Of a DNA stretch of 64,000 nucleotides, positions 21,605 to 55,599 are shown in pieces. The notes under the pieces are model-generated. The model was given only the letters and a program-made list of their open reading frames with translations, had not been told where the DNA came from and made no database searches. Made by a program: the position numbers and the translations under genes. The stretch is from an uncultured Gammaproteobacteria bacterium (GTDB lineage Bacteria; Patescibacteriota; Patescibacteriia; Magasanikbacterales; UBA922), in assembly GCA_964344965.1 (NCBI GenBank), contig CAYFPJ010000001.1, forward strand, positions 86,771 through 150,770. Reading direction: 5' to 3'. Every line of letters starts with the position of its first letter. The first letter of the stretch is position 1.

Positions 21605-21685
21605 TGTCATCCTGAGCGCAGCGAAGGATCTTTCTTGTAGAGGACTTCTTCCTTACTAAAGATCCTTCGCTGCGCTCAGGATGAC
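21605..21685. repeat. family B palindromic element, full copy
   Basis: GTCATCCTGAGCGCAGCGAAGGATCTTT ... AAAGATCCTTCGCTGCGCTCAGGATGAC. Confidence 0.7.
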
Positions 21686-21696
21686 ATACGATTTAT

Positions 21697-46809: not shown

Positions 46810-46830
46810 GCCAACTTAGATCAGCTGGTC
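46810..46830 (+). pseudogene. duplicated 5' fragment of tRNA-Thr (GCCAACTTAGATCAGCTGGT) followed by the GC hairpin CCGCCTACGCTGAAGCTTCGGCGG
   Basis: Matches the first 21 nt of the tRNA at 46900 with one mismatch; there is no T-arm. Confidence 0.6.
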
Positions 46831-46899
46831 CGCCTACGCTGAAGCTTCGGCGGATAAATGCCGCAATCGTTTTGTTCTTTCAATTATTATACAACACAT

Positions 46900-47265: not shown

Positions 47266-47333
47266 GGGTCGGTACTCAAGCGGTCAACGAGGGCAGACTG
47301 TAAACCTGCCTGCCGGCAGGTCTGCTAGAGTAC
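47266..47333 (+). pseudogene. tRNA-Tyr-like 5' fragment with a GC hairpin (CCTGCCTGCCGGCAGG) inserted after the anticodon loop; no T-arm
   Basis: GGGTCGGTACTCAAGCGGTCAACGAGGGCAGACTGTAAA parallels the 5' half of the real tRNA-Tyr at 47344. Confidence 0.55.
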
Positions 47334-47343
47334 TAACTAAAAT

Positions 47344-50965: not shown

Positions 50966-51038
50966 GCTTTTTGTGGTTAGGATAATGACTGTCTTAAGGT
51001 TAAAACTGTCAAGCACGTCAGACTTATTTTGCAACTCT

Positions 51039-51154
51039 GTCATTGCGAGGAGAGAGTCGGAGCCAAAGCGAAGAAGAACGACGTGGCAATCTCATCGTTT
51101 TTACACAAAACCCATGAGATTGCCACGTCGTTCTTTCAGACTCCTCGCAATGAC
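51039..51154. repeat. family A MITE-like element
   Basis: TIR GTCATTGCGAGGAG / CTCCTCGCAATGAC with an internal inverted repeat ACGACGTGGCAATCTCAT / ATGAGATTGCCACGTCGT. Confidence 0.7.
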
Positions 51155-51183
51155 GAAATAGTTAGCGGATTTTATAATCTATA

Positions 51184-52708
51184 TATGGATAAAAAAGAAA
51201 TTTTCAAAAAAATTTATCATGTTTCTGATGAGACGTATACGGACGTCTATGTTGTTGGTGGGTATGTGAGGGATGAGTTGCTTGGGGTTGAAAATAAGAA
51301 AGATATTGATTTTGTTGTAGCAGGAAGTGGCCTTAAGTTTGCTACCCAGCTTTTTACCAATTTTGATGAAGAAGATACTAGGCTTGTCGAGTTTCCAGAT
51401 TTTGATACTGCTCGGATCGTTTTTTTGGTTCCTCAAGAGAAAGATAAAAAAACAAAAGTAGTAATTGGTGGACAAGGTCTGGAAGAAGTGGAGATTGATC
51501 CATCCGATGAAATAAAAAAGAAGGTTTTGTTTGAAATAGAATTTGCTGGAGCAAGAACAGAGGAGTATAACGACAAATCTCGTAAGCCAAAAGTACAATC
51601 AACAACTCTTGAGGATGATTTGAGACGCCGTGATTTCACAGTTAATGCAATGGCTCAAAAAGTTGAAAAGAATGGCAAATTGGGAAAGATTGTGGATTTA
51701 TTTGATGGTCAAAAAGATTTAAAAAATAAAATTCTCCGTACACCATTAGATCCAGACGAGACTTTTGTCGATGACCCGCTTCGTATGCTCCGAGCAACTC
51801 GTTTTGCAGCTCAGCTCGAGTTTGCTATTGAGCCGAAGACCCTCCAGGCAATCAATGAAAACAGAAAGAGACTGAAAATAGTTTCCAAAGAAAGAATTCA
51901 AGAAGAAATTATCAAATTATTCGCTTCTGTCCAGCCTTCAGTTGGTCTTTTTATTCTCTATCAAACTAAGTTGATTGACGAATTCATGCCAGAAGTATCC
52001 AAGCTTGCTGGGGTGGAAGAAGTCAAAGGGTATAGTCATAAGGATAATCTGTCTCATACTTTTGCCGTGGTCGACAATATCGCTGAGAATTCAGACAAGC
52101 CATTACTTAGGTTCGCTGGTCTAATGCACGATATTGCCAAGCCAGATACTAAGAAATTTACCAAGGGGAGAGGTTGGACCTTTGATATGCATGAGCATTT
52201 GGGTAAGAAAATGACCAGAGATATTTGTCGTCGACTGAAATTTAGCAAAAAAGACACAGAGTATCTGGCCAAGTTGGTCCGCTATCATCTCCAGCCGATT
52301 GCTCTTATGGACAGAGGAGTGACAGATAGTCCAGTTCGTCGTTTAGTCATTGATGTTGGAGAGGATTTGGATGATTTGCTTGTCCTTTGTCGGGCTGATA
52401 TTACCACTGGTAATCAAAAGAAAAAGGCCAGGAGATTAAAAAATTATGATATTCTAGAAAAGCGAATTGTCGAGCTGATAGAGAAAGACAAGCTCAAATC
52501 ATTCCAATCCCCAGTACGCGGAGAAGAAATTATGGAGCTCACAGGTCTCAAGGCTGGTCCGACTGTGGGGAAAATAAAAAAACGCATTGAAAATGCTATT
52601 CTTGATGGTGAGATTGGTAATGATTATGAGGAGGCGAAGAATTTTTTGGAAAGCATTCGAGAGGAGTATGTGAGTGAGGCGGAGGAGTGGGAGAGGGGTA
52701 GTGGTTAG
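51184..52708 (+). CDS. cca: CCA-adding tRNA nucleotidyltransferase with HD domain
   Basis: Head domain GGYVRDELLG...DIDF and the HD motif LMHDIAKP. The start is set at the ATG at 51184, because the longer ORF would begin inside the family A repeat. Confidence 0.8.
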
Positions 52709-52747
52709 ACCAAAGTTTATCTTGAACTATAGAAAACTACAACTTTC

Positions 52748-52843
52748 GTCATTGCGAGGAGCGACGAAGGAGCGATCTATCTCATTGTTTTCTCTACTAC
52801 CACTGAGATTGCCACGTCGTTCTTTCAGACTCCTCGCAATGAC
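52748..52843. repeat. family A MITE-like element
   Basis: Same TIRs and orientation as the copy at 51039-51154. Confidence 0.7.
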
Positions 52844-52860
52844 GAATTAATTTTGAAAAT

Positions 52861-52895
52861 AAAAAAGCGCTGTGAATGCAGCGTTTTTGTTTTTG
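52861..52895. terminator. bidirectional terminator hairpin (AAAAAAGCGCTG tgaa TGCAGCGTTTTTG)
   Basis: An A-run, a hairpin and a T-run between cca (+) and the minus-strand RNA gene cluster. Confidence 0.6.
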
Positions 52896-52902
52896 TGTTG
52901 TG

Positions 52903-53035
52903 TGGACCGGCCCGGTTCGCACACTCTCTTCCGGAAGGATAGGTACTCCTTCGAGGGCGCCCCTCCCCCTTGGGAGAACCTGGGTTTGAGAGTGGCGAAC
53001 CGGTCCGGTCTGGTTACCGGAGGCGGGGTCATATC
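52903..53035 (-). ncRNA. GC-rich structured element of unknown identity (candidate small RNA)
   Basis: Long-range pairing GACCGGACCGGTTCGCCACTCTC / GAGAGTGTGCGAACCGGGCCGGTC on the minus strand encloses about 60 nt containing a TTCCGGAAGGA motif. There is no ORF, and GC is far above the local average. The strand is uncertain. Confidence 0.35.
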
Positions 53036-53042
53036 TATGCTA

Positions 53043-53116
53043 TGTGTGCGACAGGATTCGAACCTGCGACCTCCCTCATACCAAGAGGGCGCTCTATCCG
53101 CTAGAGCTACGCACAC
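53043..53116 (-). tRNA. tRNA-Thr (anticodon GGU)
   Basis: Minus strand: acceptor GTGTGCG/CGCACAC, D GCTC/GAGC, anticodon stem CCCTC/GAGGG with loop TTGGTAT, T-arm GCAGG TTCGAAT CCTGT, discriminator A. Confidence 0.8.
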
Positions 53117-53147
53117 AAACATGATGACCCCGCCTCAACGGCGAGTA

Positions 53148-53254
53148 TTGCGGGGGCAGGAGTCGAACCTGCGAGCCCTTGGAGAGTCTCGGTTTTGAAT
53201 CTCCAAGGCACCGGGTCATGAACCCGGCGGCCAAACCAGCTGGCGTTCCCCGCG
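53148..53254 (-). tRNA. initiator-like tRNA-Met (anticodon CAU) with an approximately 31-nt hairpin inserted in the variable region
   Basis: Minus strand: 5' CGCGGGG ... CCCCGCA A 3' as in E. coli tRNA-fMet, including the C1xA72 mismatch. Anticodon stem CCGGG/CCCGG with three G-C pairs and loop TTCATGA. T-arm GCAGG TTCGACT CCTGC. The extra hairpin CCTTGGAGA ... TCTCCAAGG lies between the anticodon and T arms. Total length is 107 nt. Confidence 0.55.
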
Positions 53255-53303
53255 ACAACTGGCTTTTACCCTAGCGATATCTCTCATTTTTGTCAAGTAT
53301 AAT

Positions 53304-54059
53304 TTGTGGAAGTATAATGTTGTAGTCAAAAACAAAAGAATGTATAATAGGTGGTATATGATTATTGAATTTTGGAATACATTTCTCTACGAACCCCTGT
53401 TCAACTTCTTGATCTGGATGTACAACAATTGGACAGACGCCAATATGGGTTGGGCGATAATTGCCTTGACCGTTTCTTTGCGTTTGGTCTTATTACCTCT
53501 TACCATCATTACGGAACGTAATCAGGCCAAAAATGATGGTCTAGAGGACGAAATCAAGCGAGTGGCGAAGGACTATCACTATGACCCAGTACTTCAGAAA
53601 GAAGAAATACGTCGCAAATTGAAACAGCGCAAAGTAAAGCCATGGGCCAAGGCTATCAATCTTGGCATCCAAGGTCTGGTCTTACTTTTGCTTTACCAAG
53701 TGTTTGTGAATGGGATTACTGGAGAGCGGATGATCAAGACCCTCTATTCTTCTGTAGATTTTCCTGGTGTGATCAATACTATGTTCTTTGGTCTTGATCT
53801 TAGTGAACCTTATGGATTATTCCTATCTGGAGCAGTGGGAATCTGGCTCATGCTTGAGATTTATATGGGTTTCAAAGGTCACCGCAAGTCTTTATCCCGA
53901 GCTGATTTGTTTTATTTCCTCCTTCTCCCTCTGTCAGTCTTCTTGCTACTCTGGGTGTTGCCCATGGTCAAAGCTCTTTTCATCCTCACTTCATTAGCAT
54001 TCTCACTAGTCGCTCACTGGCTGATGAAACCGTTTTTTAAGAAAAAGAAAAAGGCTTAG
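53304..54059 (+). CDS. yidC: YidC/Oxa1-family membrane protein insertase (short form)
   Basis: GWAIIALTVSLRLVLLPLTI and a KPWAKAINLGIQGLVLLLLYQVF core. The exact start is uncertain. Confidence 0.7.
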   Translation: MWKYNVVVKNKRMYNRWYMIIEFWNTFLYEPLFNFLIWMYNNWTDANMGWAIIALTVSLRLVLLPLTIITERNQAKNDGLEDEIKRVAKDYHYDPVLQKEEIRRKLKQRKVKPWAKAINLGIQGLVLLLLYQVFVNGITGERMIKTLYSSVDFPGVINTMFFGLDLSEPYGLFLSGAVGIWLMLEIYMGFKGHRKSLSRADLFYFLLLPLSVFLLLWVLPMVKALFILTSLAFSLVAHWLMKPFFKKKKKA

Positions 54060-54861: not shown

Positions 54862-55029
54862 TGATACTAATGACACGAATATTGAGTTGGAATAACACGA
54901 ATTTTACCACCCAAGCTGGGTGGTTTTTTGATACTACGGATTACGGATAATACGGATTTACGGATAGAAGACTGGTTGCCTTTTTTAAAAAATGGTTTAG
55001 AGTGTATACGCACTGAAGGGAGGTGCAAG

Positions 55030-55320
55030 ATGGCAGGATTCTGGGCGTCTGTGGCGGTGGCGACTGTGGTCGTTGTCGTCGTAAAGACGATCCTCTGGGT
55101 CCGAGAGGACCGCTTGCAGAAGAGGATCCTTGCGTTTCTTGAGACCGAGGAAGGGCAACTTTCCGACCTGGCAGAGATCACATCCGAGGTTATCCCGGCC
55201 GGGAAGAAGATGTACCGGGATCAGGTTCGAGTTGAGGAGTCCTTGAACACACTCCTCGACAAGAAAAAGATTTGGTACAATTGCGACTACGGGTACTCCG
55301 TCGTTAAGAAGGAGGACTGA
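55030..55320 (+). CDS. small hypothetical protein encoded in an anomalously GC-rich segment
   Basis: A GGAGG SD 7 nt upstream, an N-terminal hydrophobic stretch (VAVATVVVVVV) and a helical C-terminus. Its codon usage is GC-rich (GCG GTG GCG GTC), unlike neighbouring genes. Confidence 0.4.
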   Translation: MAGFWASVAVATVVVVVVKTILWVREDRLQKRILAFLETEEGQLSDLAEITSEVIPAGKKMYRDQVRVEESLNTLLDKKKIWYNCDYGYSVVKKED

Positions 55321-55599
55321 CATGCCCTGTCAACCCAACCTACGAATTTGCGGTTTCTCTCGTGGGTTGGCTGAGGAGGGGTCAGCATGGCATTTTCTCG
55401 ACCGATTTGGTCAGAGGAAACTGTAAATGCTTATCCGGGCCGTGGTCTGGAGGGGGTGTCGCGGCTCGGTCGAAGAACATTGGTTTTAGCCACTCTTTGC
55501 CACTTTTTGAAGTGGTTTTTGTATATTTTCTCATCGTAGGTAGAAAGTGCCTGCACTACGTAGCCCGACCGTAGGGGGGCGAAGCAGTGTGGATAAGTA

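Follow-up and report, generated by a model that had tools for sequence, protein, structure and literature searches.

Among the closest described counterparts of the locus reported here are the RNase III processing stems of rRNA operons, in which complementary flanks form a long helix that encloses the mature RNA within a multi-gene stable-RNA transcript; RNase III needs roughly two helical turns (roughly 20 bp or more). The same enzyme excises the intervening sequences (IVS) of 23S and 16S rRNA, which are sporadic hairpin insertions bounded by inverted repeats, and both 4.5S RNA and tmRNA are matured from co-transcripts. To our knowledge, tRNA operons normally need no helices of this kind, and we know of IVS in rRNA helices and not in tRNA genes or tRNA trailers. 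Among archaea, split and intron-containing tRNA genes include the split tRNAs of Nanoarchaeum and the tri-split tRNAs of Caldivirga (summarised in PMC10714607). We searched the literature for CPR bacteria with split or nested tRNAs and for stem-clasped bacterial tRNAs, and found nothing relevant.

The window (the whole 64-kb stretch of DNA that was analysed) carries two tRNA genes on its minus strand, followed by a GC-rich element at 52903–53035. This element is an orphan structured segment and is statistically unusual. We tentatively read it, with a probability of about 40%, as the structured 3′ trailer that is co-transcribed with a tRNA cassette of recent acquisition; its long helices would then serve in double-strand processing or in stability.

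Anatomy of the two-tRNA block

Two plus-strand genes flank a 650-bp spacer, with the CCA-adding-enzyme gene ending at 52708 and yidC starting at 53359. Within this spacer the minus strand presents, in order, a promoter-like site, tRNA(CAU), tRNA-Thr, the element and a terminator, with the following features.

53268–53296, minus strand: promoter-like site, read from the sequence, with TTGACA (53296–53291), a 17-nt spacer and TAGGGT (53273–53268)
53148–53254, minus strand: initiator-like tRNA(CAU) (Rfam tRNA model, 33.9 bits, E = 2.7e-5)
53177–53208, minus strand: variable-loop hairpin of tRNA(CAU), 32 nt, an inverted repeat with a 9-bp stem (CCUUGGAGA/UCUCCAAGG) and a 14-nt loop
53124–53136, minus strand: 5′ (leader) strand of the clasp S1, perfect inverted repeat
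53042–53117, minus strand: tRNA-Thr(GGU) (ARAGORN; Rfam, 59 bits)
53020–53032, minus strand: 3′ (trailer) strand of S1, perfect inverted repeat, supported by ensemble pairing
52988–53010, minus strand: 5′ arm of the long stem P1 (fold, inverted-repeat search and ensemble pairing)
52929–52987, minus strand: interior of the element, 59 nt enclosed by P1 (fold predictions)
52905–52928, minus strand: 3′ arm of P1, with outer 16-bp and inner 7-bp parts and a single bulged U between them on this arm
52863–52888, both strands: bidirectional intrinsic terminator (terminator scan, sites on both strands)

The GC content of 52903–53035 is 63.9%, against 38.9% for the window as a whole, which is close enough to the 60% in a 35% background given in an earlier note on this DNA, and the strongest GC island of the 64 kb extends over 52864–53289 (100-nt windows; maximum 0.66, mean 0.389, s.d. 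0.071). The long-range complementarity described in that note takes the form of the stem P1, in which 52905–52928 pairs with 52988–53010 (plus-strand numbering) through 22 Watson–Crick pairs, with one mismatch and one bulged base. Its 16-nt core was recovered at 94% as an inverted repeat by the repeat search, and its pairing probabilities in the full-transcript ensemble are 0.96–1.0. The internal motif reported earlier, TTCCGGAAGGA, was likewise read in the sequence at about 52929–52939, and the interior also contains the palindrome CUUCCGGAAG. The MFE structure of the interior has three small hairpins on a four-way junction, of which the centroid keeps only GAAGGA/UCCUUC, and the fold z-scores of the element are −3.8 on the minus strand and −2.8 on the plus strand. 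The earlier description of the region as free of ORFs is loosely true, in that the element is non-coding, but mechanical ORFs of 91 aa (minus strand) and 108 aa (plus strand) cross it. Both frames also traverse the tRNA genes, and translated-ORF searches found no credible homologue of either peptide. Positions 52903–53035 are thereby confirmed as a real, non-coding, unusually GC-rich and strongly self-complementary segment.

The Rfam scan proposed in the earlier note assigned the element to no family (E ≤10, 149 nt). At gathering score only the tRNAs were recovered; at E ≤10 over 651 nt the extra matches were noise (YrlA at 24.1 bits and assorted unrelated sRNA models), and the element's 149 nt alone gave three matches of 12–16 bits, two of them to models of microRNA precursors and one to a viral packaging signal. 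SRP and 6S RNA, which had been suggested as identities, were thus returned neither at gathering score nor at E ≤10 on either length. The tip of SRP helix 8 consists of a short helix capped by a GNRA tetraloop, with the conserved symmetric loop AGG/AGCA on its flanks. The GGAA tetraloop that had been likened to SRP domain IV can be formed solely by the plus strand, where it closes a hairpin of 3 bp, with flanks that read CUCU/UAGG and no AGCA inside the hairpin, and SRP RNA (RF00169) gave no model match at any threshold. For 6S RNA (RF00013 and related), whose rod-like fold opens into a large bubble at its centre, there was no match at E ≤10, and the predicted interior of the element is a small multi-branch structure or a series of short internal loops. 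The YrlA model (RF02553), which combines a terminal stem with a tRNA-like domain, scored 24.1 bits against a cut-off of 69 bits and matched 53057–53196, a segment that spans the two tRNAs and not the element. A divergent member of a known family, whether SRP (4.5S), 6S or a Y-RNA-like RNA, is essentially excluded within the reach of these searches: the UCC-GGAA-GGA hairpin on the plus strand, the rod-like overall pairing and the YrlA score point towards one, but the helix 8 bases AGCA and AGG are absent and the strand that carries the GGAA hairpin is the one on which the element follows the terminator.

P1 may also be viewed as a 16-bp leader/trailer clasp followed by a 7-bp acceptor-like stem, with the bulged base at the discriminator position, in which case the element would be a decayed stem-clasped tRNA and its interior the remains of D, anticodon and T arms. 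The 16 + 7 bp split with the bulged U on the 3′ arm mirrors the neighbouring clasped tRNA-Thr, the interior folds into three hairpins around a four-way junction in the MFE structure, the element is the third unit in a tRNA operon, and pseudo-tRNA fragments occur elsewhere in the window. We nevertheless regard such an origin as improbable, as the 149 nt gave no match to the tRNA model (RF00005) at E ≤10 and no ARAGORN call even at relaxed threshold, only one arm is confident, the T-loop and D-loop consensus sequences are both missing, as is an anticodon loop of 7 nt, and the third arm is separated from the stem by five extra nucleotides. Similarity to the two neighbouring tRNAs is also not significant; the best match, with the variable-loop insert, covers 21 nt at p about 0.05. 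A hidden outer tRNA was considered separately and rejected, since deletion of S1 with its tRNA, of P1, or of both revealed no new tRNA.

The perfect 13-bp inverted repeat S1 brackets the whole of tRNA-Thr(GGU) on the minus strand, as the earlier note had claimed, although its left arm, at 53020–53032, is one base off the position given there (53021–53033). The two strands stand 7 and 10 nt from the tRNA ends, and the mean pairing probability of S1 is 0.92 in the full-transcript ensemble. The MFE structure joins S1 and additional leader/trailer pairs to the acceptor stem in a near-continuous helix of ~31 pairs, from 53142/53016 to 53110/53050, of which ~24 leader/trailer pairs with small bulges are predicted outside the acceptor stem. 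A perfect inverted repeat of 13 bp was reached in 1 of 300 composition-preserving shuffles of 52890–53260, and perfect leader/trailer complementarity of at least 13 bp was found in 3 of ~212 tRNA contexts from the CPR loci fetched, the window's tRNA-Thr included.

The C1×A72 mismatch and three G–C pairs at the base of the anticodon stem are hallmarks of bacterial initiator tRNA. The tRNA(CAU), which was missed by ARAGORN and found by Rfam, shows the C1×A72 mismatch and GGG/CCC in the anticodon stem, together with an odd anticodon loop, UUCAUGA. After exact deletion of 53177–53208, ARAGORN calls a 77-nt tRNA-Met with a 5-nt variable loop, and the tRNA without this insert has 76% identity to a CPR initiator tRNA.

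We infer that the promoter-like TTGACA-17-TAGGGT would serve the tRNA cassette; its −10 (TAGGGT) matches three of six bases, and the site is absent from the list of the promoter scan. The terminator at 52863–52888 is predicted to serve both strands, closing the tRNA cassette in the minus orientation and the CCA-enzyme gene in the plus orientation. Read as plus strand, the element follows directly on this terminator, and the scan gave no promoter-like site for it there; it is therefore placed most simply as the tail of the minus-strand unit. Co-transcription of the element with the tRNAs is likely, being the natural expectation from the gene order on that strand. The predicted 403-nt transcript folds at −201.6 kcal/mol, against −144.5 ± 6.7 kcal/mol for shuffles (z = −8.6), into three modules: the tRNA(CAU) cloverleaf with its extra arm (A), the clasped tRNA-Thr (B) and the element with P1 (C). 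G–U pairs are absent from S1, P1 and the variable-loop hairpin, which together comprise 44 pairs, so that the structures do not tell the strand, nor selection on RNA from selection on DNA.

Distribution and origin of the block

The window belongs to a CPR (Patescibacteria) bacterium close to Candidatus Magasanikbacteria, and the YidC encoded in it is 86% identical to that of a Magasanikbacteria assembly. At 86% (L081–L083) and 83% (L164) YidC identity, the CCA-enzyme and yidC genes are adjacent, with a spacer of about 170–210 bp and no tRNA, and at 62–65% identity (L084, L085 and L165) the spacer measures 43–70 bp or holds one small ORF. The whole ~590-bp block (tRNAs plus element) of the window's CCA–YidC spacer (52709–53358) is missing from that spacer in every relative fetched (block-free spacers compared include L081 2830–3000 and L084 2932–3000, with those of L164 and L165) and, to judge from these loci, was inserted or translocated in this lineage specifically.

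Beyond the window, the element was recovered only in two identical sequences (L087 and L088) from the same organism and one sequencing project; the organism also occurs in ENA ERZ930070 and run ERR2281801. The element was not found at 80 CCA-enzyme loci of GTDB genomes, a covariance model of it recovered nothing but itself in 719 kb of CPR and phage loci, and blastn against phages and plasmids returned generic tRNA similarity or nothing. Exact-pattern searches of viral contigs gave single chance matches only for the P1 arm and no match for a 24-mer of the P1 interior. Metagenomes were probed through tRNA anchors only. The 25-nt anticodon arm of tRNA-Thr had no exact match in JGI metagenome contigs or viral contigs, and its 20-nt D arm matched exactly only in GC-rich (64–66%) phage-like arrays of 23–27 tRNAs, from which the element is absent.

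Overall, tRNA-Thr has 74–76% identity to the tRNA-Thr(GGU) of phage-like arrays, compared with 53% to the window's tRNA-Thr(UGU). The anticodon arm of tRNA(CAU) matches exactly in the tRNA-Met genes of two viral contigs, while the body of this tRNA is equally close (76%) to a CPR initiator. On these sequence similarities it is plausible that the two-tRNA cassette is foreign, possibly phage-derived, and a foreign origin would account for the high GC content without any RNA constraint. The closest tRNA-Thr(GGU) matches lie at L158 3751–3825 and L161 1925–1997 (also L162 and L163), with an exact D arm of 20–23 nt and 74–76% identity overall; one matching array is on a 210-kb viral contig, and the L161 copy was missed by ARAGORN.

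These distributions bear on whether the element is a new, lineage-restricted small RNA gene of ~110 nt, with a long closing stem and a branched tip, that would be matured from the tRNA co-transcript. Such a gene would be consistent with a GC-rich island in an AT-rich genome, with the significant fold energy and with a position in a stable-RNA operon just before the terminator, and it would be new, as no known family matched. However, the element is absent at the locus in relatives down to 83–86% YidC identity and from all collections searched, its interior is poorly determined, and its high GC is common to the whole putatively foreign block and need not mean RNA constraint, which together make a small RNA gene improbable.

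Several other features were observed in the window. Truncated 5′ fragments of tRNA genes occur at 46812–46899 and 47266–47343, each a short way upstream of an intact gene of its own type; one, of tRNA-Thr(UGU), ends in the D loop and is followed by a GC-rich hairpin, and the other, of a diverged tRNA-Tyr, ends at the variable arm. A second GC-rich (up to 62%) lineage-specific insertion lies between the Band_7 and hrcA genes (54930–55500), 1.7 kb from the block; it contains an ORF of 96–130 aa that matched nothing in the databases other than its own sequence, and the 86% relative lacks the insertion. A hairpin repeat family (TCGTCATTGCGAGGAG ... CTCCTCGCAATGACGA) has copies at 2293–2432, 51039–51158 and 52745–52846, one of them directly between the CCA-enzyme gene and the terminator, and a related hairpin with a 29-bp stem (TGTCATCCTGAGCGCAGCGAAGGATC...) is found at 21605–21686. 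For the CCA-adding enzyme, the mechanical ORF (559 aa) starts within one copy of this repeat (51029–51181). As the enzymes of relatives have 489–505 aa, translation probably begins at the ATG at 51182 (MDKKEIF...).

Possible insertion relics and proposed tRNA processing

Two other CPR contexts with leader/trailer complementarity of at least 13 bp carry a bracketed tRNA inside a tRNA gene of the same anticodon. Within disrupted tRNA genes, in the D loop or the anticodon loop, tRNAs with 11–17-bp stems occur at L039 1120–1330 (minus strand), L019 3640–3840 (minus strand) and L008 5050–5290 (plus strand). The bracketed tRNA of L019 sits in the D loop of tRNA-Arg(UCG), and that of L008 follows a tRNA 5′ half and precedes two copies of the stem strand plus tRNA 3′ half. 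In L039 the arrangement is nested twice, and excising one insertion together with both of its complete 11-bp stems leaves a perfect tRNA-Arg(UCG), joined at G18/G19. The outer stems of the three loci have the motif CCCCCACA..AAA.TTT in common, which as a pattern had no match in viral contigs, and the stem strands of L019 (AAAGTTT/AAACTTT) and L008 (AAAATTT/AAATTTT) differ in a matched way. The S1 unit of the window has the same geometry as these units but a different sequence and no recognisable outer tRNA. The block could conceivably be a member of an undescribed class of stem-bracketed 'clasped' tRNA-associated units, inverted-repeat-bounded and in many cases with an entire tRNA inside, that insert into tRNA genes or operons of CPR bacteria, although we give this only a small chance. 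The element would then be a unit with non-tRNA or decayed cargo, and the helices would be mobility determinants or RNase III-dependent tRNA-release signals, a proposal of similarly low probability.

The main rival to a processing trailer is a DNA-level palindrome or relic, in which S1, P1 and the variable-loop hairpin would be inverted-repeat-bounded insertions (MITE-like or IVS-like) or scars of hairpin rearrangement. The segments would have come with the foreign tRNA cassette or accumulated in it, and would be passively transcribed with no RNA function. This explanation is possible, if on the unlikely side. It is consistent with stems in which all 44 pairs are Watson–Crick, with the restoration of a canonical tRNA by exact removal of the 32-nt hairpin, and with the same signature in L039, where a stem-to-stem deletion restores a perfect tRNA-Arg. 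Terminal inverted repeats are present (9 bp, 13 bp and 16/23 bp), the block is lineage-specific, the element is an orphan in all collections searched, and the same genome contains GC-rich lineage-specific orphan DNA 1.7 kb away, tRNA 5′ fragments and hairpin repeat families. Several observations argue against it: P1 and S1 each occur only once in the 64 kb analysed, no target-site duplication is readable at S1 or P1, deletion of either uncovers no host gene, and no transposase or integrase adjoins the block.

The processing trailer is favoured by the gene order and signals of the minus strand, by the stable predicted fold with its well-paired S1 and P1, by a 13-bp repeat that is improbable by chance and rare in CPR tRNA contexts, by the lack of a promoter-like site for the element on the plus strand, by the block's absence from the spacer of relatives, and by two atypical tRNAs, whose exact arm matches (D arm of tRNA-Thr, anticodon arm of tRNA(CAU)) came only from phage-type contigs. 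We suggest that a recently acquired, lineage-specific cassette, inserted between the CCA-adding-enzyme and YidC genes, may have brought three modules, each with an inverted-repeat-bounded segment (the variable-loop hairpin, the tRNA-Thr leader/trailer helix and P1). The leader/trailer helix would lengthen the tRNA-Thr acceptor stem by roughly 24 pairs, and the S1 and P1 helices in the transcript would present an RNase III-type substrate; in the predicted fold, the ~31-pair S1–acceptor helix and the 22-pair P1 are both at or above the length that RNase III needs. Cleavage at these helices would separate tRNA-Thr from its neighbours, and the stable terminal hairpin that remained might protect the trailer or dispose of it. 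The anatomy, the predicted fold, the absence from relatives and the lack of a family match are results of this analysis; transcription, cleavage and any benefit to the cell are proposals. The trailer reading is weakened by the weak −10 (3/6), by all-Watson–Crick stems that fit young DNA-level inverted duplications too, by a P1 interior with no confident fold (one hairpin in the centroid), by the lack of homologues in the collections searched, by the general rule that tRNA operons do without such helices, and by the lack of clasps (≤7 bp) in the phage tRNA arrays that match these tRNAs best.

Functional helices would mean that tRNAs are matured from double-stranded processing stems in the manner of rRNAs, in bacteria whose RNA-processing machinery is very reduced. 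Should the helices be mobile units or insertion relics, small cassettes would carry and remodel tRNA genes in CPR genomes, and counts of CPR tRNA complements would be affected, ARAGORN having missed one tRNA in this window.

Comparison with known systems

The bacterial small SRP RNA (RF00169) resembles the element in its size of ~100 nt, its overall hairpin and the GGAA loop that can be drawn in the element, and differs in that the element has no model match and no helix-8 loops, with its GGAA hairpin on the unlikely strand. Archaeal split and intron-containing tRNA genes likewise show GC-rich complementary sequence beside tRNA parts and interruption at non-canonical positions, and the nested tRNAs of L008, L019 and L039 recall them. 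In contrast, the window's organism is a bacterium and its clasp encloses a complete tRNA and joins no halves; no bulge-helix-bulge motif was noticed when the junctions were read by eye.

The long extra arm at the variable position of tRNA(CAU) is reminiscent of class II tRNAs and allo-tRNAs. Unlike class II tRNAs, however, this tRNA has initiator hallmarks and the standard 7/5 acceptor/T geometry, and the arm can be removed as an exact 32-nt unit bounded by inverted repeats, a sign that it was inserted and is not native as in class II tRNAs. The IVS of rRNA offer a similar picture, as both the 32-nt variable-loop hairpin and P1 look like hairpins bounded by inverted repeats in stable-RNA genes.

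The RNase III stems of rRNA operons differ from the window's arrangement in that the latter encloses a single tRNA, with a perfect part of 13 bp and about 24 pairs with bulges in a fold that is predicted only. The likeness lies in the complementary flanks, the long helix enclosing a mature RNA and the multi-gene stable-RNA transcript: at S1 a complementary leader and trailer enclose a stable RNA, and helices of ~20 bp or more are predicted both for the ~24-pair leader/trailer helix and for P1.
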